From contig NC_086380.1 in assembly GCF_036588685.1 (NCBI RefSeq), positions 4,898,001 through 4,962,000 of the forward strand: a stretch of DNA of 64,000 bases. The letters are read 5' to 3'. The stretch is from Mytilus trossulus (Eukaryota). Below are positions 14,604 through 58,100 of the stretch, piece after piece (position 1 is the first letter of the stretch; every line of letters starts with the position of its first letter). A program made the translations under genes and the position numbers. The notes beneath the pieces are model-generated. The model worked only from the letters and a program-made list of their open reading frames with translations, was not told the DNA's origin and ran no database searches.

Positions 14604-15339
14604 TTAAATTATCACACTATTTTCTATTTTAGAATTCGTTAAATATTCTTTTAGATTTCTATGTTTTTTGTACGCAATAATTGGTGGTTTTGGAAACATC
14701 GTTTTAGTATTCCTGTTTTGTTCGATTAGGTGCCAATGTTTCCTTAACGCTCTTCCGATTCCTTTAAATGCTGGGTTAAATCTAGTTGCAAAAACGAGTG
14801 GTGGAGCCGCTTTCTTATTTTTATAATTGTATTTCAAAGTTTGTTTCCTTTCTCGTTTTGTTGTATTAGTTATAATGTTGTCAATCTCATTTTCGTAATG
14901 TCCTCTTTTAAGAAGTTTAGACTTAAAAAACTGGACTTCTCTATTGAAGTCATTTATGTTATTGCAAGATCTTCTAAAACGAATAATTTCTGCAGTAATA
15001 AATTCTTTGAAATTATTCGTTTTAGAAGATCTTGCAATAACATAAATGACTTCAATAGAGAAGTCCAGTTTTTTAAGTCTAAACTTCTTAAAAGAGGACA
15101 TTACGAAAATGAGATTGACAACATTATAACTAATACAACAAAACGAGAAAGGAAACAAACTTTGAAATACAATTATAAAAATAAGAAAGCGGCTCCACCA
15201 CTCGTTTTTGCAACTAGATTTAACCCAGCATTTAAAGGAATCGGAAGAGCGTTAAGGAAACATTGGCACCTAATCGAACAAAACAGGAATACTAAAACGA
15301 TGTTTCCAAAACCACCAATTATTGCGTACAAAAAACATA
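14604..15339 (-). mobile_element. Penelope-like retroelement RT C-terminal fragment with fold-back inversion
   Basis: Translates FITAEIIRFRRSCNN...LLKRG...PLVFATRFNP...LRKHWHLIEQ...FPKPPIIAYKKHRNLKEYL, a PLE thumb/linker-type signature. Arms 14660-14990 and 15009-15339 are reverse complements, which is why the ORF track shows the same peptide on both strands. Confidence 0.8.
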
Positions 15340-18039
15340 AGGGGGGTCATTAAAAAAACTATCTGAATTAAGTTTTTTATCCTACATTGAACTTTTGATG
15401 TTGTCCCTAATGTGTTGTCCTCTTGAAGAAATGAATTCATTAGGCAAGAAGTTTAAAAATTGAGGTTTTACACTTAAGATAATTGAAATCGCATACTTTA
15501 AGAAAGAAGATTTGATGAAGCACTTGTCAGAAAAGAGAATACGTCCTGTTTATATAACATATTTTGATGCTAACAGTTACTACACCTTACCGAAAATACT
15601 GATTATTTTCTTTCAAATGAGTGAAAAATTCGACTTCCAATAAAAATGTTGCTATGCATAATATTGTAGCCTTAATTCAGGTACTGTGTTGATTCTTTTC
15701 CATCAAAATGTGTTTCCTGCAGTCAATTCACATATACAGGAACAATGAGACGTGGAACGATTGCCTATGAGATAACTATCCACCAAAGTTCAAATGAAGT
15801 GGTTGTAAGCAATTATAGGCAACCATATGGCCTTCAACAATGTGAAAACCTCTTACCATATAGTCGGCTATTAAAAATTTCCACCTAAGAGAAATATTAA
15901 ACAATTAAATTGAGGAAACTTAGGGCTTAATCTATAACTAAACAATTACAAAAAGACTCAGGACAGACACACTAGTCTCTCCATACAATGATTGACAATA
16001 TTTTCTTGTAAGAATAGTTTTGTGTTTTGATTTTCGGCAAAGACAGTTATATGTAAAGTTTCAATGTTCTCTTATAATACAGGTAAATCTTATAGCCGAA
16101 CGTGTGAGGCTGTATAACCAGTCAAGGTAAATACAAATTACCATTATCGTGTATCTTATTTGTCGACTTTAAATGATTTCATAACAAGATAAGAGATCAT
16201 TTAAATTGCATAATCTAGTAAAGGAGATGCATTATAAGTGTTCACTGTTGATGATATGTATGATATGTACTTTGCATACGTGAGAATAACCTCCGTTATA
16301 CAACCCACTCTAAGTACTATAAGTTTTTACTAGACCTAAACATTATTATCCGAATGCTGGTTGTTTGCATCTAAAAAGGAGAAAAAAAACATACTATTAG
16401 TGTTTACTGTTGATGAAGTGTATGACATGTACTTTATATAAGTAAGAACAACCTTCGTTATAAAACTCACTATATGGAAGTTTTTACTAGACCTAAGCGT
16501 AAATATCCGGTTGCTGGTTGTTTTAATCTATATAGGAGAAAACCATGCTATCCGATAACAAATACATGCATGTCTAGTGACAACTATAATAGTACATTAA
16601 TCTAGGGAGTGTATAGATTGTTATTCTTCAAACAGTTTGAAATTAAAATCAAAGATTCCAGGCTTATATCGATTAGAATGCTGAAGGCCGTACTGTAACC
16701 TATCATGGTTAAATTTTATGAATTGTTACTTCGATTAAGATTTGTCGCATTGGCACTCATATCACATGTTCTTTATATATTTATTATTATTGTGTACGTA
16801 AGAACGTCCAGTGGGAGAGAAGGCCTGTTACGATGAATGCCACACATTTGATCGTTAGGAAGCTCTTGCAACAACTCTCTAATGAGTCATTGTGCTCCCT
16901 GTTGTACGACAACTGTAGGAAGCATACAATAAGGCATTACTCAGTCTTTGAAGTCGAAAAAATAGTATTATTTAGGTTATGTTTCAAATTGTACTCGTGA
17001 GTACAAAAATTTCAGCAAAAAATTAAACCTTTATTTTTTCATTACAAATTTTATTTATTACACTATTAGTTATTACTTTATGATATGGTACAAAAATCAA
17101 CCCAAAAGATCGATTCGGTTTGACCCCAGATGACTTTTAAAGTTTTAAAATGTTTATATCATTGAAAAGGCTCTAAATTATCTCCCTTTGGTGCAAAAAT
17201 GCAATTTTTTGGCTTTAAATTTGAAATATCTTTTTTAACTCATCAGTGACCAATATTGTTTATCATTGTTTTCAAATAAGCTGTACATAAACTAAATAAT
17301 TGTAAAATTTAAGCGATTTCTTATATAAGGTTATTTTTTATTTCGAAATTACCTCAATTTCGCCTATTAGTTCAACAGAAAAAAAGGACATTAACAAATA
17401 GTATGCTTCTTGCGGAGTCAGATTGTGAGCTTAAATGAACGGTGACCCCATTTTTTTATTTTCTTTTTCTTTTAAGTATATGATAAAGTTTATTTATAAA
17501 AAGATATAGCAAAATCCTTAATTACTTCGATGAATAAACAGGAAGATAGAATCTGCCACAACCTTTCAAAAAAACAATCCGTTGTGATTTAACTAAGATG
17601 CAAAACAAATTGAAGATAAGTAGTGAACCAAGATATCATCCTTCTACTTTACCACCTTTGTAAAAGACATCTATTAGCGAATATATTAATGGGTAAAGTC
17701 TTAGATGGTTCAAATTAAAAGTGTCTCTAGTCTTGAAATGATTATCTGTAGATTATATTTCGTTGTTCATATCTTTTTCAAGGCGATTATATTTAATTAA
17801 TTAATTAACCGGTGCAATAAAATCACAGTACTAGACCTTCTTCTTTCTATCCTTATTCTAAATACTTCATGTTGCATCAAATGAAAAATGTGTGTTTAGT
17901 TCTCGTCCTGATTATAGGTGGAATATTTAGCTCTAAACGTTAGGCAAGTGCCAATCAGTCAATCAATCAAGGTGGAAAATACCGGATATTTTTTTTTGTA
18001 TTTAAACATAGCTTGTGTAGATCATATTTTTACCACGTA

Positions 18040-28295: not shown

Positions 28296-31200
28296 GATTG
28301 CCGATGTTATGGATGACGTAGATTACAAAACAATCAATTTCAACATAGAGGAAGCAGAATTCAGACACCCGTTATGGCTAACAGAATCACATTTTGTTTA
28401 TAACCTCTATAGAGACGATGAAGGTCATCTGAACTGTCATAGAAATGCTGCAGGCGATCCTATTCTTTCACCTAGGTACGTATAGTTCAATAACAACTAA
28501 TCCTCCAGTATAAACCTATTATAATGCTTTTTTTTTGTAGAACTGGTAATCGGATATACCAATTTAATACAAACATTTTAGTTACTTTTTTAGCTCTTGG
28601 TATTGTGTGGTTTTTTTTTGAAAATCAGAAATAAATTTAATATTAAACCTTGTATGTCAAACCTTATTGACAATGTTTTGATATATTGATAAAAATGGTA
28701 TTGCATACTCCGTATCGTGTGTTCTCTGTCACATTCTATTTATTGTAGCACACTTACAAATATTTGAAATAATTATTATTTAATAATTATTATTTAAATA
28801 TATAAATAAGTAATATTGTTGATTTGTTTTTATTGCAAAAATTTGCCACTGATAAATGCAAGTATTATATACTTTTTTTTTTAATTTCCAGACCATTGGC
28901 AAAAATGTGCATGAATGAGCTAGTCTGTGAAGGGAACCAAATATCAGTATTTGAAACAGACGCTATTCCAGCTGATCTGTATCCAAAATTGCTGGCGGAG
29001 GCCATTTTTCAACGACAATTGCAGACTATTGACTTTTTAGTATCAACATGGCCACACTCCATCCTAGATCTTCAAAGTGTTATGCCAAAGGAAGACCTAG
29101 TGGAAGCTCAACTGCTGACGATACCAATAGAGGGACATGACGGGATAACGTTTTTGGACTGTATAATGTGTGGACTTCTTAGACAAAAGTATTCTTCGAG
29201 ATTGAGAACAGTAAACCTATCTGGATTCAAACAAGGCAAACCATTTTTTTTTATTGAGACCAAACAACAACATATCTTATTTTCATAGTCCTCCTTCGCT
29301 GCTGTTTTTGCTTATTCTCGTGTCTTCCTATTTACCTCCATTCTATCGCGCGTTCTTCTTTCGATCAGCCTCGTTTCGATGAAAGCGGGACAAACGATAC
29401 CAGTTGAAAGTGTCATCCAAACTCTGAAATCAAAAATAAACTAACAACACCATGGCTAAAAAAAGACATACAGACAAACAACCAATAGTACATAAAAAAT
29501 ACATAGAAAAATAATTACTAAGTAAAATTAATCCAATCAAATTCTGGCCAGGGGTCATGTCTCGTGCTCCGGAAGAGAAAACAGTTCCTGCTCCACATGT
29601 TGCACCAGAAAGAAATGTCATATCAAACAAAGGGAGCTAGACTACAACCAGTAGTATTAGACCCACACAAAGCTATTATTCAGACTATTTTTGAAAATCA
29701 AAAATCTACAACCTTATTTAGTATAAAATTTCGTTGCAGATCGCACGCTTTGTCGTGATATCTGCCGTCTTCCATTATTGTGGATGCCACCCGCAGAAAG
29801 AGATACTGAAAAGATTTACGACATTTTATCACAAACTATAGGTAAGTATATCCTACAAATCTTGTTTACTTAAGAATTTTAAAAATAGGTTTTTAGTAAA
29901 TGAAAGAATAACTTAATTTGCATTTGATACACGTATGTTCCTACATTCTGTAGATAGTTGATACTTATATTTTGAATTAAACAATGGTATACTTATGCTG
30001 TTCCAATCCCCCATGCAGAGTTATCGGTCCTTTCTATCTCTCTGCATAGGAGATTGTACGTTTTCGTCCTTTTTATACGTAATAATAGATAGTTAATCAT
30101 TGATACATGATTGATTTAGTTATTATTTGAATAGAACTAGCTTTTAGTAACTGTCTAAATATATCTTTTGCCTTTATGTTAGTTGGTTTGTTTTGTGCTT
30201 TATAACCATATATCGAGTTAAATTGAAAGCAGATGTAGTATGATTGCCCATGAGCTCGAGACAACTCTTCACAAGAGACCAAATGACACATAAATCAAAA
30301 AAATATAGTCCACCGTACGGCCTTCAACAATGCGAAAAGCCCATATCGCACAATTAGCTATAACAGACCCGTGTAAAGGACGAAGCTATTTTTAATAGAC
30401 TTTTTTTTTTAACATACTTACTTACTTTAATGATTTAAATTTTCAATTCGAATCTTTAACTTAGTTATTAGTTTGTACCAACGACTACCAAATAATATAA
30501 GTAGATACTAGGTTGTGATGAACGATTTGTTTATCGTTGAAGACCTTCGAACAACATTAATGTTCAATAATAACAAAAAAATCGGTGTTATTTTCGCTAC
30601 ATCCTACTATTTCAAGAGGTTTTTTGTCTAATGTACACCATGCTTATCTTTTTATTTACTATAAATATCTGACGAAGCAGCTGTCGATTGCGTGAGAAAT
30701 ATTTGATATCATTTAAACACAATTATGTAATCATCATTCTTATCTCATATAGCAGATATTCTTCACAATAATTTCACTTTTTATGTTCTAAGCTGAAGTA
30801 TTGATGGAACTATATAACTCAGATGAAGTTTTGAAACGATTTATCACTCAAGTTTGCATTTTTATTATGCAGTAATTTTAGCCATAATATTTCAGATATA
30901 ACTGAAGAAAAGGTGCAGAAATATCTGAACAGAATAAAGTGCATTTATACAACAATGGACGCTCATGTTCCACATGGACACCAATTTCGTATGTTTTATA
31001 CTTTTATTAATACCACAGTAATAAATAAAAATAAAATTGTGTCAACAGTTCAGTTATGTCATTGTTAAGAACATACACAAAACCATTGTTTAATGACTAT
31101 CTTTATGGCATCTTTTATCTATGCAATGCATGATTTTTTTACTCCAGAAAAGTAAAACGAAGAAAATAATCTATCCAATACCAGACAATCTCACACCATA

Positions 31201-34200
31201 TATTTAACTAAATCTGTTATATAAAACCATTGTCGAATGAATCCATACTCGAGTTACACAACAGACGTACTTGTGCAAGAAATTGCTTACCAATTAGGAG
31301 CACTTATGTTCACCTCATGCTAGGTTAACAATTATACTCCTCTTTATTTTTAGCTTGCCTTTCCGTCTTTTCAAAATTTTGGTTAGTACAGTGTTATTGG
31401 TATGGTTTTTATTTGTATCCTCTAATTTTGGTTAGTGCAGTGTAATTGTTATGGTTTTTATTTGTATCCTCTAATTTTGGTTAGTGCAGTGTAATTGTTA
31501 TGGTTTTTATTTGTATCCTCTCATTTTGGTTCGTGCAGTGTTATGGTTTTTATTTGTATCCTCTCATTTTGGTTAGTGCAGTGTAATTGTTATGGTTTTT
31601 ACTTGTATCCTCTAATTTTGGTGAGTGCAGTGTAATTGTTATTGTTTTTATTTGTATCCTCTAATTTTGGTTAGTGCAGTGTAATTGTTATGGTTTTTAT
31701 TTGTATCCTCTAATTTTGATTAGTGCAGTGTAATTGTTATGGTTTGTATTTGTATCCTATAATTTTGGTTAGTGCAGTGTAATTGTTATGGTTTTATTTT
31801 GTATCTTCTAATTTTGGTTAGTGCAGCGTAATTGTTATGGTTTTTATTTGTATCCTCTAATTTTGGTTAGTGCAGTGTAATTGTTATGGTTTTTATTTGT
31901 ATCCTCTAATTTTGGTTAGTGCAGTGTAATTGTTATGGTTTTTATTTGTATCCTCTAATTTTGGTTAGTGCAGTGTAATTGTTATGGTTTTTATTTGTAT
32001 CCTCTAATTTTGGTTAGTGCAGTGTAATTGGTATGGTTTTTATTTGTATCCTCTAATTTTGGTTAGTGCAGTGTAATTGGTATGGTTTTTATTTCTATCC
32101 TCTAATTTTGGTCAGTGCAGTGTTATTGGTATGGTTTTTATTTCTATCCTCTAATTTTGGTTAGTGCAGTGTAATTGTTATGGTTTTTATTTGTATCCTC
32201 TCATTTTGGTTAGTGCAGTGTAATTGTTATGGTTTTTATTTGTATCCTCTCATTTTGGTTCGTGCAGTGTTATTGTTATGGTTTTTATTTGTATCCTCTC
32301 ATTTTGGTTAGTGCAGTGTAATTGTTATGGTTTTTACTTGTATCCTCTAATTTTGGTTAGTGCAGTGTAATTGTTATTGTTTTTATTTGTATCCTCTAAT
32401 TTTGGTTAGTGCAGTGTAATTGTTATGGTTTTTATTTGTATCCTCTAATTTTGATTAGTGCAGTGTAATTGTTATGGTTTGTATTTGTATCCTATAATTT
32501 TGGTTAGTGCAGTGTAATTGTTATGGTTTTATTTCTAATTTTGGTTAGTGCAGCGTAATTGTTATGGTTTTTATTTGTATCCTCTAATTTTGGTTCGTGC
32601 AGTGTAATTGTTATGGTTTTTATTTGTATCCTCTAATTTTGGAAAGTGCGCAGATTTTGTGATAGACTGAGGTAGATATAAGAAGATGCAGTTTAACGCA
32701 AATGAGACAACACTCCATCCAGGTCACAACCTGTAAAAGCAAACATTTATAGGTCACATTATGATCTTCAACACTGAGCCTTGGCTCACATCGAACAGCA
32801 AGCTATAAAGGGCCTACAAATGACTAGTTAAAAACCATTCAAACGAGAAAACCAACCGAGTCTAATCTATATAAAAAAAAAACGAGAAACACTAATGAAC
32901 CACATTAACAAAGGATAACCTATGAACATTAGGTTCCTGATTTAGAACTAGTATGCTATTGTAAAAAGATACGCATATGCAAAGACATCGATAGGGCAAA
33001 TCAAATGGAGGGTCGTACAGCTAGATCTCCGTAGACATTCATCCCAGTAAATAAAAAATACAACAGCATTGAATTTTCATTTTCAATATGTATTTCAGCA
33101 CCAATCACTATTATATTGGACTGTAAAATGACTTTAGACGATGTTCCTATTGGTTTGGCCTTACAGAATGAGACTCCATTCAGATTTGCTTGTCAGAGGC
33201 TGTGGACAGAACGTATAAGTGACGTCAATCTACCATTAAACTTACTACATAGAGTACTGGAACCGAGGGTAAGTAAAACAACAAGTGACGTCAATCTACC
33301 ATTAAACTTTCTACATAGAGTACTGGAACCGAGGGTAAGTAAAACAACAAGTGACGTCAATCTACCATTAAACTTACTACATAGAGTACTGGAACCGAGG
33401 GTAAGTAAACCAACAATTGGTAAAATATAACCTTATTGACTGCTATAGATCTAATGTGTTATGTAATCAAACTCTCTGTTCATTAAGTCAGTTACAAGTA
33501 TTGATCCTCTGTTATGTGGAATACACCAGTCAAAGGGAGTTAATTAAGATAACTTTCTTTTGTTTTATTTTTCGCACTGAATATATATGATATATTTGAC
33601 ATGCACACGTATAAAAATTGCGGTTTTTATCCAACGCAATCATAGGTTTGAACGTAGTTTTCAATTTAGACTCGTATATATATCATATTGAATATCTGTA
33701 ATTTCATGAGTGATTGTGAGGTTTTTATTAATGCGAGTTATGCAACAGCTGCGTATTGCAATAATGAAATAATATATATAAAACATATATTAGTATAAAT
33801 CTTTACTAAAGTTATAATAAATGATATCAATGTCAAAATTGCAATAAGTAATGTTCGCAACAAATATCTGGAATTTACATTAAAAGATCACCAACACAAA
33901 TACGATAATTGAATGAAAGTACAATATGTAATTTATTCCTCAATATCAGGTCAGTACACCATTTTCCCCGTTACCTTTCCTTTAGAAAATGTCCTCGGTT
34001 GCCACATTGTCGAAGTAGTTTGTCTGCAATCATTAATACCATTTCTACTCTGAGGTTGTGAGTACGAATCCCGATCGTATACTGCTCTGGTGTTAGACTC
34101 CTGTCTTAATTGACTGACAAGTGCTCCTAAGAAACGTCTTTGGTTCTCTCAGGATACTCTGATTGCTATGGTATATTCAAGAGCGACCGAAGGAGTATAT

Positions 34201-35206
34201 ACAACACATCACAAACGAACATACATATAATATAATGCATATTTGTTTGCTTTTAAAAAAAATAATTCAAGTTGGATATTTTCGAATTACTAATATTTAG
34301 TTCCGAGCGCCATGCATAGTTTTTATGCATGAAAAAGTGAAATTGCGCCTTGTAACTTCGGCATTTTGTAACTTTTGGAATTATTAAGTTCGTTCCCTAA
34401 ATATTTATTTTCAAATTCCATATTTATAATATTCAATTACATTTTTCACTAGAATAATTGTTTTTCAGGACCTAACTGAACTTGAAATAGAAGACCGAAA
34501 TCTCTGTACAGATGACGACAACATGGAGATTTTACTTGAAGCATTGTCATTGCTACCGAACATAAAATCACTAAGTCTCCCAAATACCATACACAGTAAC
34601 GAAAACGAGGCAGCAGTGAAAGGACTGAACAAAGTACTGAGAACGATGACCAATCTGAAGAAATTAAACTTTCCTCTTTGTAACTTAAAAGATAATTTAC
34701 GTGACCTTTTGACCGGACTGCAGCAGACAATGACGTTTTTGTCGCTTAGAGACTGTCGTCTGTCCGAAGCAGACGTGTTGTTCCTGCTAGAATGGCCGTT
34801 AACACGAGGTTTGTTTGACCTGAATGTAAGCAGAAACAATCTTCGGAATTCATACCAAAGTATTTTATCTCTTTTAGAAAAACTAGAAGAAATCCGATGT
34901 TTTTCATTGTCTTATTGTTGTTTTAGTCCTGCAGAACTAAGAAACATTGTTGAAGTTGCTTCTAAATGTACAAACATTAAAACTCTTGGAATCCAAAGTT
35001 TCACGCCATTATCAGAAGCCGATAGTCAAATGATTTTGAAAGGATGTTGTTTGTTGACAAACCTGCAGAAATGTCTTATGTTACCAGAATGTCACGCCTT
35101 TTTAGGGAGTAATGATTTAGATAGGTTTGATAACAGAGAAAAATATTTGGAATTTTGTGACAACATACTATCAGATTTAAAACGTGATGATATAGAACTT
35201 GAATAA
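28291..35206 (+). CDS. LRRC14: LRRC14/PRAME-family leucine-rich repeat protein (543 aa)
   Basis: Exons 28291-28475, 28892-29235, 29740-29841, 30896-30988, 33099-33268 and 34469-35206 total 1632 nt in one open frame. Family motifs: SPRPLAKMC, IPADLYPKLLAEA, LVSTWP, LDCIMCGL, RLRTVNLSG, plus C-terminal LRRs (LSLRDCRLSEAD, LNVSRNNL). Orthology to LRRC14 itself is not proven. Confidence 0.85.
31374..32642. repeat. 49-bp minisatellite, ~26 copies (intronic)
   Basis: Unit TTTTGGTTAGTGCAGTGTAATTGTTATGGTTTTTATTTGTATCCTCTAA. Confidence 0.95.
33216..33415 (+). repeat. 66-bp x3 repeat spanning an exon-intron boundary
   Basis: AAGTGACGTCAATC...GGAACCGAGG/GTAAGTAAAACAAC three times, giving donors at 33269, 33335 and 33401. 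Confidence 0.95.
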
Positions 35207-50850: not shown

Positions 50851-51234
50851 TTAAAAGTGATAAAACAAATGTATCATCTAAAATTAATTGTATAATTGTA
50901 TAAAATCTCATATTTTATAAAAGTACAATAAAGTTCAATAAAGAAAAAGTTAAGAAAAGGTTCTGTTTCGATATTGCTTAGGAATATATATATATAATTA
51001 AATATGTATAAATGCAGCTATTAAAAGCTACTATCCTTTAAAGTGTTGCAGTGACCTTTGTGTATTTGGCATGAGTAACATATAAAAGATACCGTAACAC
51101 TTTCAATCAATAATCATTTATAAGCAGCTTAACCTGATCGAACCGTTTGCAGCTAGATATTAATATACGGGAGTCAATGTATTTATAACTCATGAATCAC
51201 AAGGTATCTTAAATTAATGCAGATTTCAATAACT

Positions 51235-51315
51235 AAAAATTCCCAATCAATTTCCCTTGTCTCTGCGCATGGTTTCGGAAACTAATATAAGTCGGAGGTC
51301 AACATCCGGAAGTGT
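51235..51315 (+). promoter_or_regulatory. Candidate promoter of the BH3-only gene
   Basis: Cluster of an ETS-like CCGGAAGTG, a TATA-like AATATAAG and kB-like AAATTCCC/AATTTCCC motifs ~200-280 nt upstream of the ATG. Confidence 0.35.
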
Positions 51316-51517
51316 GCAAGAAAGATCGACCATTTACTCCACCCAAGTCAAAGACGTATCAGGCAAATCGCCAGTGCTTTCTATACATATATTTCAACCA
51401 ATCAAATTCCGAGTTTTGTTTGACAGACTACCACAAATACCCGCGTTTTCTCAGTACATTTTTAATGTTAAGGATTAAATCGACAATTAAAGATCCGATA
51501 AAACAATTACTGACCAT

Positions 51518-51784
51518 ATGTGTATCTGTGAAAAAATTTTGCTGGCTACCTTTGGAATGCAAGAAAACGAAAATGAATCTTTACATGTCTCTTTTGCTAG
51601 AGAACAGGCTATTGTTGAAGTTGCAGCCAGGCTCAGATGTATTGGGGATGATTTGAATAAGCGCTATTCTGCTTCTAAATCTAAGGATGGTTTTCACCCT
51701 TTTCAGAATGCTATTTTGCAGGAGGTTCTTTTGGAAATGAAAAGACATTTTCTACATTTTGCAGGCTATTTACAACCTAAGTGA
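51518..51784 (+). CDS. Putative BH3-only pro-apoptotic Bcl-2-family protein (88 aa)
   Basis: Canonical BH3 motif VAARLRCIGDDLNKRY, with no BH1/BH2 visible. Strong donor AAG/GTACGT 11 nt after the stop (51796), acceptors at 51976/52037, a long AU-rich downstream region and AATAAA at ~53922. Confidence 0.75.
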   Translation: MCICEKILLATFGMQENENESLHVSFAREQAIVEVAARLRCIGDDLNKRYSASKSKDGFHPFQNAILQEVLLEMKRHFLHFAGYLQPK

Positions 51785-54700
51785 AATGACTTAAGGTACG
51801 TTGGTTTCGATATTACTGTAAAGACTTTTTAAAACGTATACTATTTTATTGCTAATTTTATGAGAAATGTTGCTTACAGTTGTAATTTAAAAAAAGTGAA
51901 ATATAATGATATTAAAATGCAAATTAAACTTGATGTATATTTTACCCTTGCATACTTCTTTTGCTTTTGTTTCTAGGAAGAATATATATACAAAACCTTT
52001 AAACACACATTATTTATTTATTTTTGTTTATTTTCAGATTCAAATGTGACGTTTTACATCCCAGTGAATGGAAGAATACACTTCCAAAAAAAAACACCGA
52101 AAAAAACAATGCCATGAAAGTCATCGACATCATATATTTTTCAAGCATTTTCTGATTTCATCTCTAGTCATCCAAAAAATAACAAGGAAAAATCGTAATC
52201 AGAAATTCAGACGAAAAAGTATTTATTCAGGTGGACCCTATGTGGTTACACAGATAACAACAGATAGAGAAGAGGGTCTTCCGGTACGGACGATGAACTG
52301 TTCAGAGACTGTCTGGTACTGCAATGTAATCACGCGGGAAAAGTTGATTAATAAATATGATCATTAATTCATACAGATGTTGGACTAAGTGTCACTGACA
52401 GATAATAATAAGATCAATTAAACATGAGAGAATAAGATCAATTAAACATGAGAATATTTACTAACAGAGAGTGTAAGTGAAGAATGGCGCCCGTTTCTAT
52501 GGTCTTATTCGATGCAATCTATAAAAAAAACGTTTTCGTTTTCCTGAATTTTTATAATTTTAACTTTTAATGTGCAATACGTTCATATATATTTTCAAGC
52601 TCTATTACTTTTGATTAGAGTTATTTTTGTGATATGTAGATAAACTTCTATGATAAGTATGATATTTTAGTTTTTAAACAATTCATGATCAAGTGTCAAA
52701 TTATATTATTCAGTCTATTTAGAATCTTATTTATTTCGTTTTCAATACACTTAAGTGGATCTAATTATATTAATGTTCTATACTAATATCTTTGAAAAGG
52801 TGTGAAGAACCTCGTTTGCTTTTATGTTGGATCGCTACTTCAAATTTTAATGCAACACCTGTTATGTTTACAAATCGAAAATCTACAATATTTAAGCAGC
52901 TTATACCCATGTAAAGCACTATTTTGATAAATAAAGTAATAAGAGTTTTAAACTTTTAAGTGAAATATAATATTTTCTTTTTGTGCAGTTAAACTCAGGC
53001 TAAAATGTTTAAAATTGAATCAATTTTCCATTAGTTATGTGGTTATAATAGTTTTTCTATTTAAAAATTATGTTAAATAGCATTATACAATTTCACATTC
53101 CAGTATATTTTAGTTTTAAAAACTCCATCGGAAATCATAATTTGTATGTCTTTTGACAAAGTTATTGACATTTAAGCATTGTTTTAATACTTTTGAAGTA
53201 CATTGTATGTGTTAAAATCAATTAAATCATTTGTGTATTCATGTTTATTTTGCCCTAGTATCAATGTAGGCAAACAACCCGGTGATAATTAATAAAACGA
53301 TCATTTTCAATTTAAATAAGGAAAATCAATCATCATATTTATTCTATAACTTATATGTATCGAATACATAATTTAAGTGCTATAAATTATTTCATTTTAT
53401 TATATACAGGGAATTTACTTGTGAATTATATATTGTTGTGTGTTAAAATATTTGTTTTCAATATTTTTTAATTCGTTTCTGAATTTAGTTATTTTTCCAA
53501 AAGATTTGTTTCTTTTGTAAATAGTAATTATTTTACAATTTTACAAATCTGAAAATTCTAGTATTTTTCATGAGTGAGCAAGATTGATTCATAAATTTAC
53601 AAAACGAAAAATTCAGTGTACAATTTTATAAGAGAGCGAAATAAAAGAAATGTCATGTGTTCCAAAAAAAATTAATACTTCAGTTCGATGAACTCGAGTA
53701 TGATGAGTTATTTGTGTGTGCGTACGTGTATGTGTGTGTGTGTGTGTTATAAAAGTTCTTTCTACAATCGATATACCTCAGAAATATATGTATTTCATGT
53801 GTTGAATTTTACAAAAAAACGTTTGTTAAACAAATGTTGAAAAATCTTTGAACTGTGATGATATGTTATGTATTTTCTACATTTGGTGCAATCACTCAGG
53901 TGCCATTATTGATATTATACAAATAAATATTTAATTCTTACATGTAAAGTGTCTTTATATTACTGACCAACCCCTAGAGACCCCACTAGACATTTATAGA
54001 TGAACTATAATTCCAAGAAACGTTGACTGCTGGCTTCATGTCTTTTGTAGCCTCAGTTTTCGCATATACATATATACGTGAAAACTATTTTTTTTTAATA
54101 AACAAGTTATTTAGTATGAAAGGGGGAGTCATGCACATGAGACAACTATCCACCAGGTACATAATGACGATTATAGGTTATCGTATGGTAATATATATTA
54201 CCATATATCGCGACTAGATACATCAGTGGCGCACACACATTTCCTGGATAAGTTTTACTCAGTATTTTGAGTTCATTTCCAGTATTATACAGATGGTCTC
54301 CAACAATTACCAAATTCAATATCGTAAAGTCAGCTCCGCCGAGACAAAATGTGAAGCAATTCAAATACACAAAACAAAAGCTTAACACAAAATCTTACAG
54401 TCAGCAACAAACGATTACCACTGGAGTTCAACACTCATTCTAAGATTGATTTTTAATGTTGAAGAAGTTATATTATCAAGCATTTTAGAAGCATCCCTTC
54501 TTACACTCGTAACTTAAACCCAGAAAACATGCGTATTTCGTCAAACAATCTGTAAACAAGACATTTTTAATACGTTTTATTTTATTTGGATTTCCATGCC
54601 TACAGTTATATAATGTTTCTCATTTATGTCCAACTTATTTTACCATCAACTTCCATTAATGAAATCAGACAAGGTTCTTCCCTGTTTTATTTAAAGGTTC

Positions 54701-55107
54701 CATGTAATTGTTGATCACCCATACATGCTTGAATATGTCCCCATTCTTTAATATGCACTTTTAAATTACAGTCGGGGATGGTTGCTTGAGAGAGCTGTCA
54801 AAATATTCTATTAACTTGATGTTCTATATTTCTTTTACTGTCATTGATCAATGTGGAGAGTGGAGAGCTGTCTGATTGGCGGGTTCGTTCTTATGTTGTA
54901 CTGTTATACCACTGTCCCGGGTTATGGGAGGGTTGGGATCTCGCTAACATGTTTAACCCCGCCACATTATTTATGTATGTGCCTGTCCCAAGTCAGGAGC
55001 CTGTACTTCAGTGGTTGTCGTTTGTTTATGTGTTACATATTTGTTTTTCGTTCATTTTTTTTACCTAAATAAGGCCGTTAGTTTTCTCGTTTGTATTGTT
55101 TTACATT

Positions 55108-58100
55108 GTCTTATCGGGGCCTTTTTTTAGCTTACTATATGCGGTATGGGCTTTGCTCATTGTTGAAGGCCGTACGGTGACATATAGTTGTTAATGTTTG
55201 TGTCATTTTGGTCTTTTTTGGATAGATGTCTCATTGGCAATCATACCACATCTTCTTTTTTATATGTCTCGTCTACTTATTTTTCTAATTGATATATATC
55301 TTGTCCCTCCGTAATTATATCCAAGGTTGCATACACAGAGATTAAAAAGAAGATAGGCTTTTTATGAAACAAAATTTCATCTCAAATGTATAACGGCAAC
55401 AGTTAAGATATCGCACGGCGTAAAGACGGGCCAATTGTCTTCTGACGGTCGGTATCTTCAGCCATTCAATTGTTACTTAAACACATTATTGGCAACAAAT
55501 TCTCGAGTTGAACTTTCTAACTTTCTAGTCCCCTTTATTCAAAATGACCCACTTTGCAGTAAAATGAACTTACTCTATAAATTAATTATAAATTTAAACT
55601 CGTCCCCGATTTGCATGAAATATTTGCCGCTGAATGAAAAAAAAAATATCAGTAGACGAATCATTTTGTTTGTCTCCACACAGTAACATTGTGCTACTGG
55701 GTCGGAAAAACATAACGCGATCAATCATAATAACTTCAAATAAATTAATTATGTTTATGACGTCTTTACACTAAATCCATTGGATGTTGGATGTGTACGG
55801 ATTGATAGTTTAGTCGAAATTGCATGATTTATTTATTAGTTGTAAGTGGCTTTGAACTAGCTGTCAGATAACTGCGAGTACTCTCAGATCTGTTCATAGT
55901 GTCTTATCGGGGCCTTTTATATTTGACTATATGCGGTATGGGCTTTACTCATTGTTGAAGGCCGTACGGTGACATATAGTTGTTAATGTTTGTGTCATTT
56001 TGGTCTTTTTTGGATAGTTGTCTCATTGGCAATCATACCACATCTTCTTTTGTATATGTCCCATCTTCTTATTTTTCTAATTGATATATATCTTGTCCCT
56101 CCGTAATTATATCCAAGAGATTAAAAAGAAGATAGGCTTTTTATGAAACAAAATTTCATCTCAAACAGTTAAGATATCGCACGGCGTAAAGATGGGCCAA
56201 TTGTCCTCAGACGGTCGGTATCTTCAGCCATGCAATTGTTACTTAAACACATTATTGGCAACAAATTCTCGAGTTGAACTTTCTAACTTTCTAGTCCCCT
56301 TTATCCAAAATGACCCACTTTGCAGTAAATTGAACTTACTGTATATATTAATTGTAAATTTGAACTCGTCCCCGATTTGCATGAAATATTTGCCGCTGAA
56401 TGAAAAAAAAAATATCAGTAGACGAATCAATTTGTTTGCCTCCACACAGTAACATTGTGCTACTGGGTCGGAAAAACATAACGCGATCAATCATAATAAC
56501 TTCAAATAAATTAATTATGTTTATGACGTCTTTACACTAAATCCATTGGATGTTGGATGTGTACGGATTGATAGTTTATTCTTAAATGCATGATTTATTT
56601 ATTAGTTGTAAGTGGCTTTGAACTAGCTGTCAGATAACTGCGAGCACTCTCAGATCTGTTCATTGTGTCTTATCGGGGCCTTTTATATTTGACTATATGC
56701 GGTATGGGCTTTGCTCATTGTTGAAGGCCGTACGGTGACATATAGTTGTTAATGTTTGTGTCATTTTGGTCTTTTTTGGATAGTTGTCTCATTGGCAATC
56801 ATACCACATCTTCTTTTTTATATGTCCCATCTTCTTATTTTTCTAATTGATATATATCTTGTCCCTCCGTAATTATATCCAAGGTTGCATACACAGAGAT
56901 TAAAAAGAAGATAGGCTTTTTATGAAACAAAATTTCATCTCAAATGTATAACAGTTAAGATATCGCACGGCGTAAAAATGGGCCAATTGTCTTCTGACGG
57001 TCGGTATCTTCAGCCATGCAATTGTTACTTAAACACATTATTGGCAACAAATTCTCGAGTTGAACTTTCTAACTTTCTAGTCCCTTTTATCCAAAATTAC
57101 CCACTTTGCAGTAAATTGAACTTACTGTATATATTAATTGTAAATTTGAACTCGTCCCCGATTTGCATGAAATATTTGCCGCTGAATGATAAAAAAAATA
57201 TCAGTAGACGAATCATTTTGTTTGTCTCCACACAGTAACATTGTGCTACTGGGTCGGAAAAACATAACGCGATCAATCATAATAACTTTAAATAAATTAA
57301 TTATGTTTATGACGTCTTTACACTAAATCCATTGGATGTTGGATGTGTACGGATTGATAGTTTATTCTTAAATGCATGATTTATTAATTAGTTGTAAGTG
57401 GCTTTGAACTAGCTGTCAGATAACTGCGAGCACTCTCAGATCTGTTCATTGTGTCTTATCGGGGCCTTTTATATCTGACTATATGCGTTATGGGCTTTGC
57501 TCATTGTTGAAGGCCGTACGGTGACATATAGTTGTTAATGTTTGTGTCATTTTGGTCTTTTTTGGATAGTTGTCTCATTGGCAATCATACCACATCTTCT
57601 TTTTTATATGTCCCATCTTCTTATTTTTCTAATTGATATATATCTTGTCCCTCCGTAATTATATCCAAGGTTGCATACACAGAGATTAAAAAGAAGATAG
57701 GCTTTTTATGAAACAAAATTTCATCTCAAATGTATAACGGCAACAGTTAAGATATCGCACGGCGTAAAGATGGGCCAATTGTCTTCTGACGTTCGGTATC
57801 TTCAGCCATGCAATTGTTACTTAAACACATTATTGGCAACAAATTCTCGAGTTGAACTTTCTAACTTTCTAGTCCCCTTTATCCAAAATGACCCACTTTG
57901 CAGTAAATTGAACTTATTGTATATATTAATTGTAAATTTGAACTCGTCCCCGATTTGCATGAAATATTTGCCGCTGAATGAAAAAAAAAAATATCAGTAG
58001 ACGAATCATTTTGTTTGCCTCCACACAGTAACATTGTGCTACTGGGTCGGAAAAACATAACGCGATCAATCATAATAAAATTATGTTTATGACGTCTTTA

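Follow-up and report, generated by a model that had tools for sequence, protein, structure and literature searches.

The locus examined here raises the question of whether a short open reading frame (ORF) in a 64-kb stretch of Mytilus trossulus DNA, analysed over its full 64,000 nucleotides and hereafter called the window, encodes a BH3-only protein, as an initial annotation made from the letters alone had proposed. As far as their available text goes, papers of 2013, 2017 and 2022 know of no molluscan BH3-only protein. The accessible portion of Suraweera et al. 2022 (PMC8998228) describes such proteins as 'potentially present in Lophotrochozoa', and the legend of its Fig. 5 names 'potential', unvalidated candidates from octopus, two oysters, scallop and limpet. 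That portion gives no evidence of selection or function for them and mentions 'Mytilus' 0 times. In the excerpts at hand, squid BNIP3 is called BH3-only and Bid is absent (PMC9389742), and the corresponding gap in Drosophila is described as closed only in 2023, with sayonara (PMC10107002). Within the partly accessible literature outside subscription journals, neither this gene nor a tested molluscan BH3-only protein was found, and no publication in that coverage paired 'BH3 motif' with 'Mytilus'. As regards novelty, the initial annotation is corrected by the unvalidated candidates of the 2022 legend. The gene described below is a strong, unannotated and canonical BH3-only candidate backed by selection, although not the first molluscan candidate in print.

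The reading frame, its motif and the nearest in-frame stop codon upstream are located as follows:
51518..51784, plus strand: coding sequence, 88 aa, single exon, ATG to TGA.
51599..51670, plus strand: BH3 helix, residues 28-51 (h0 I32, h1 V35, small residue A36, h2 L39, h3 I42, G43, D44, h4 L46, Y50).
51488..51490, plus strand: stop codon TAA in frame with the ORF, inside the apparently spliced contig 51481-51795.

Both the 88-aa single-exon ORF and the textbook BH3 claimed for it are present as described. Residues 35-50 (nt 51620-51667) read VAARLRCIGDDLNKRY, that is, V35-A-A-R-L39-R-C-I42-G-D44-D-L46-N-K-R-Y50, and the protein contains the four hydrophobic anchors, the invariant Leu and Asp and the small groove-contact residues that define a BH3. 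Because the TAA at 51488 lies within the apparently spliced contig, the ORF begins in that exon. Translation may start at Met14 (51557), yielding a 75-aa product, since this methionine is invariant in 8/8 aligned sequences and has a G at position -3 both in the window and in the orthologous locus described below, whereas Met1 has C or T. A strict BH3 pattern, formulated with the motif already in view, has a single match across all six frames of the window (GC ~32%), whereas 150 simulated windows average 0.007 matches each, and in 0/150 of those simulations does it fall within an ATG-initiated ORF of at least 60 aa. The looser core pattern has 8 matches where 4.3 are expected, the core alone being uninformative. 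No paralogue of the ORF is present within the 64-kb window.

Relatives of the protein come from three sources. Eight near-identical 88-aa proteins, all from Logan, form a cluster in which residues 35-50 are unchanged in seven; none of the eight has a name or annotation, and the gene is absent from annotated proteomes. A search of 1.84 billion representatives returned a 79-aa relative, P0010 (49% identity, E 1.9e-14); the other four of its five matches (P0011-P0014) were long repeat proteins with patchy alignment and were dropped as spurious. Metagenome contigs supplied a genomic orthologue locus, L001, whose 88-aa product is identical at 56/88 residues (64%). Relatives made up 1/446 pattern matches among metagenome contigs, 0/132 in viral contigs and 0/124 in prokaryote genomes, and a search with profile A1 added no new relative (2/17 candidates). 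The orthologues of the window ORF are P0015 and P0010, and the stop codon stands at the same place in three lineages.

The window and L001 align without gaps over all 88 codons, and their differences are distributed 23/14/42 by codon position. From this one pair, with dS near saturation, we obtain dN = 0.255, dS = 1.289 and omega = 0.198 (Fisher p=3e-8), and omega reaches at least 1 in 0/2000 bootstrap resamples. The other five frames of the interval contain 1-9 stops each, in the window and L001 alike. Judged by these substitutions, the ORF at 51518-51784 is a real, conserved protein-coding gene. With region boundaries set when the motif was already known, omega falls to 0.075 in residues 28-51, compared with 0.30 before and 0.22 after them, and 16/24 columns of the BH3 helix are invariant across three lineages versus 14/51 elsewhere (p=0.002). 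V35, A36, L39, R40, I42, G43, D44, D45 and Y50 are invariant in 8/8 aligned sequences, position 46 is always L or M, and position 41, which sits between anchor residues, varies (C/L/H). By these measures conservation within the protein is highest in the BH3 helix, which bears out the selective conservation of the BH3 on which the initial annotation had made its reading depend.

The structure of the transcript was assessed from contigs of 4/19 sequencing runs, none of the 19 being on record as RNA, and comprises two further features:
51796-52037, plus strand: 3'-UTR intron, 242 nt, GT..AG, beginning 11 nt past the stop codon.
52038..53298, plus strand: non-coding second exon (3'-UTR), extending at least to 53298 if the RNA-like contigs represent one transcript.

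Contig 1 of X1, a run only presumed to be RNA, aligns to 51481-51795 with 2 differences, and the alignment ends exactly at the donor AAG/GTACG. By depth arithmetic, the 118 letters left over in this contig fit 52038-52154 (117 nt), so that the 51795/52038 joint is deduced from the alignment end and this arithmetic. A polypyrimidine-CAG acceptor immediately precedes 52038, and L001 has the same donor context 13 nt past its own stop. Counting against splicing, the depth in the intron bin is 3.6 for X1 and 2.4 for X3. A 4063-nt contig of run X17 retains a gap of intron length (235 vs 239 nt), and differs from the window at 25/784 positions without gaps over promoter and coding sequence and at 106/1614 with 62 gaps downstream. 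The second exon is covered patchily by X1, X2 and X3 contigs (52134-52495 and 53002-53298), and contains an island conserved with L001 (52771-52825, E 5e-4). Transcription of the ORF is thus indirectly supported, by an apparently spliced contig from an RNA-like run, and the gene is likely spliced. The intron that had been proposed for the 3'-UTR is retained, with a donor common to L001; as for the polyA signal also claimed, six AATAAA hexamers occur in the 3 kb downstream and are uninformative in so AT-rich a region.

Upstream of the ORF lies a conserved block with several sites common to the window and L001, the kB-like, CCAAT, TGCGCA and ETS-type names being consensus labels:
51231..51430, plus strand: non-coding block, promoter or 5'-UTR, conserved with L001.
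51235-51244, plus strand: kB-like site.
51243 and 51398, plus strand: CCAATCA.
51264, plus strand: TGCGCA.
51306, plus strand: ETS-type CCGGAAGT.

The promoter motifs reported initially are thereby recovered at both loci. Over 51294-51430, 122/137 nt are identical to L001 (89%), against 70% in the coding sequence. The differences in the block, at 16/11/18 by codon position versus 23/14/42 in the ORF, show no codon periodicity and include frame-breaking indels; together with the lack of a stable RNA fold (z=+1.22) and of any Rfam match, this indicates that the block is regulatory DNA. Patterns for a p53 half-site, FOXO, CRE and ISRE are absent from the 530 nt upstream. One upstream ATG within this block is kept at both loci, but the frame that it opens runs for 69 codons at window 51268 and for 5 at L001 1047. 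The L001 lineage has an ORF of 110-128 aa (L001 996-1352, proteins P0016-P0029) across the conserved block, and changes in the length of an A-run shift its frame with respect to the BH3 ORF; this upstream ORF could modulate translation there.

The window holds other elements besides. At 2500-27000 its minus strand carries C1q-domain genes arrayed in tandem, whose first exons resemble signal peptides and for which the best ESM Atlas cluster is labelled 'commonest Mollusca' (phylum known for 11/96 members). These genes and the GC content of about 32% suggest a molluscan source, and the expansion of C1q genes and a dispersed repeat suggest a mussel in particular. A perfect 331-nt inverted repeat (14660-14990 and 15009-15339, 18-nt spacer), possibly due to chimeric assembly or to a recent fold-back, gives rise to mirror ORFs at 14604..15101 (minus) and 14898..15353 (plus) with near-identical translations. 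On the plus strand, 28905-35206 contains two ORFs of 127 and 227 aa that have no Pfam match and resemble exons from a PRAME/LRRC14-type leucine-rich-repeat gene. Between 55117 and 58245, a unit of about 786 nt is present in four tandem copies, each with a very high-copy dispersed repeat, and the repeat at 54880-55270 dominates the matches of sequencing-run contigs to the window.

Beyond the BH3, the protein is predicted to form one further conserved helix:
51695..51769, plus strand: amphipathic C-terminal helix, residues 60-84, from helix prediction.

The amphipathic C-terminal segment noted initially is evident in a hydrophobic moment of 0.40 over residues 68-85. Its best 19-residue Kyte-Doolittle mean is 0.49 in the window, a value that does not denote a transmembrane segment, and 1.22 and 0.70 in the other two lineages; 9/27 columns of residues 62-88 are invariant across the three. 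The helix is not transmembrane but may well target the protein to a membrane. Residues 52-88 have no PDB match at E<=10. AlphaFold2 models a largely helical protein, with a BH3 helix and a C-terminal helix and no confident globular fold (pTM 0.37-0.42, mean pLDDT 65-68), and a fold search with this low-confidence model returned nothing at E<=0.001.

Similarity searches were made against PDB, Pfam and the ESM Atlas. All 36 PDB sequences matched by profile A1 at E<=10 are BH3-bearing, as are 40/43 of those matched by profile A2, the other three being interleukin-22; with a single sequence, 10/12 matches are natural BH3 peptides and the top match is a designed repeat protein. The profile matches comprise PXT1, BAK, BID, PUMA and BIK, with a best E of 0.044, and their rows repeat a small set of proteins many times over, each match being weak alone. 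The matched segment is almost always confined to the BH3 stretch. In Pfam, the BID family is matched by 4/8 members (best E 4.8e-4), PMAIP1 at E 0.058 and the Bim BH3 family PF08945 at 12 bits against a cut-off of 25 (E about 0.2), and the 88-aa protein has no match to a Bcl-2 family domain. The named look-alikes in the ESM Atlas are PXT1, Bim, Bmf, Noxa and Bik, with scores of 0.78-0.89, every one below the 0.9 under which scores rank as leads only. Through individually weak matches, the PDB profile, Pfam and language-model searches point to BH3 proteins only or mainly. At the top of the ESM Atlas results are two unnamed, chordate-dominated clusters (72-75 aa, 125 and 66 members, score 0.91), which may themselves be unannotated BH3-only proteins.

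Taken together, we consider it probable that the product of the gene is a BH3-only protein, a ligand of the Bcl-2/Bak groove that promotes mitochondrial apoptosis, with its amphipathic C-terminal helix as a probable anchor. Residues 28-51 would form an amphipathic helix that docks in the groove of the host pro-survival proteins Bcl-2, Bcl-xL or Mcl-1, with I32, V35, L39, I42 and L46 in hydrophobic pockets and D44 paired with the conserved arginine of the groove. Such occupation would free Bak/Bax, and possibly activate them directly as well, leading to cytochrome c release, while the C-terminal helix would keep the protein on the outer membrane of the mitochondrion. Expression would be set by the conserved upstream block, possibly in response to stress or infection. 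Groove binding, Bak/Bax release, membrane targeting and inducible expression are here extrapolated from Bcl-2 family biology. The available text of one oyster study reports that Bcl-2/Bcl-xL bind Bak/Bax through the BH3 and that cytochrome c is released (PMC5550854), which to that extent places the partners and the downstream pathway in bivalves.

A more ambitious version of this proposal seems doubtful to us. It would make the protein a direct activator of Bak/Bax that supplies molluscan mitochondrial apoptosis with its missing third arm; the protein would be induced through the kB-like/ETS block and homologous to the small chordate proteins that head the ESM Atlas results (the two 0.91 clusters and PXT1 at 0.89). 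If that homology held, one BH3-only lineage would date to the bilaterian ancestor, in place of convergence.

Several rival explanations bear on the apoptotic reading. We think it unlikely that the protein, as a true ligand of the Bcl-2 groove, has a main role other than killing, be it control of autophagy or mitophagy in the manner of Beclin-1 or BNIP3 or a weak modulation like that of ApoL2. The CCAAT, ETS-type and TGCGCA motifs upstream are typical of constitutive promoters, a p53 half-site is lacking and the conserved C-terminal helix is unmatched by known BH3-only tails; on the other hand, every anchor position of the motif is canonical, its closest likeness is to activator-type BH3s, and the protein, similar in size to Noxa and Hrk, has no other domain. 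As far as the accessible text of the sources extends, BH3 motifs also exist in non-killing proteins (PMC7022251, PMC4611713, PMC10298792), and ApoL2 illustrates that a BH3-like motif can be without killing activity (PMC4611713). It is quite improbable that we are dealing with a small helical protein that has an unrelated partner and resembles a BH3 by coincidence. No single match is significant, a designed repeat protein leads the single-sequence PDB search, interleukin-22 accounts for 3/43 profile matches and the two best ESM Atlas matches are unnamed clusters, yet conservation peaks on the BH3 anchors and G-D instead of on the faces of a generic helix, the strict motif seldom arises by chance and the three types of search converge on BH3 proteins.

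The extent and the very existence of the gene can be questioned as well. The ORF might be the end of a longer protein, either one exon among those of a multi-motif Bcl-2 gene or part of a form of 190-200 aa with the upstream ORF in frame; 2/15 members of the L001 cluster (P0027, P0029) are indeed such fusions, and 6/15 consist of the upstream ORF alone. We hold this to be very unlikely. The fusion hinges on A-run length. The upstream reading in the window is broken up over three frames with two stops before Met1, and the X3 and X17 contigs are gap-free there, so that assembly error does not account for the break. The stop position is common to three lineages with no BH1/BH2 afterwards, and no longer relative was found in the 1.84 billion representatives or, in a weak search, among 4013 longer candidates (0/4013). 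Given its absent codon periodicity and its frame-breaking indels, we rejected the idea that the upstream ORF extends the BH3 coding sequence. In this lineage, then, the ORF is not an exon of a longer protein, an outcome that the initial annotation had itself named as refuting. That a chance ORF happens to contain a chance motif is practically inconceivable. Absence from annotated proteomes would be expected of such an ORF, but an omega of 0.2 at a dS of 1.3 without an indel in 88 codons, stops in the other five frames and conservation of the splice donor and upstream block all contradict it, and the comparison of the window with L001 has in effect already refuted it.

The gene opens the question of BH3-only proteins in molluscs to a test with one peptide and two point mutants. 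Confirmation would mean that molluscs possess the three-part Bcl-2 switch, and would give studies of mussel stress, immunity and haemocyte death an upstream sensor that is now missing.

Among known systems, the closest individual resemblance is to PXT1, a vertebrate non-canonical BH3-only protein (PDB 8GSV, 7WJH; described as testis-specific in the accessible part of PMC10298792), which is the best PDB profile match (E 0.044-0.054) and the best named ESM Atlas cluster. The anchor spacing is the same in the two proteins, I32/V35/L39/I42/D44/L46 aligning with PXT1 I79/L82/L86/I89/D91/I93, a set that includes Bak-contacting residues according to the available text (PMC10298792), and the LRHIGD of PXT1 recurs in orthologue P0025. 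The likeness is nevertheless limited to about 22 residues, and the mussel protein has no Pfam PXT1 match. Noxa/PMAIP1, PUMA, Bim, Bmf, Bik and Bid share with it a lone BH3, small size and a conserved tail after the BH3, as well as the weak Pfam and ESM Atlas matches; it has no orthology to any single canonical BH3-only protein, its tail is unmatched and it lacks a Bid-like fold. For PXT1, Bid, Bim and Noxa in particular, we found neither significant similarity outside the BH3 nor a profile score shown to exceed its cut-off that would mark an orthologue. The BH3 of BAK has a nearly identical ending, I-G-D-D-(I/L)-N-x-R-Y, and derivation of the gene from a truncated Bak-like gene is possible. 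Unlike BAK, a multi-helix Bcl-2 fold, the 88-aa protein has no BH1, BH2 or transmembrane helix, and a multi-motif Bcl-2 protein (Bak/Bax/Bcl-2) was rejected as its identity, there being no BH1/BH2 and no helical-bundle fold match. In being lineage-restricted and overlooked by homology searches it is like EGL-1, the schistosome BH3-only proteins, Drosophila sayonara and the candidates of Suraweera et al. 2022, as these are portrayed in the accessible portions of PMC8998228 and PMC10107002.
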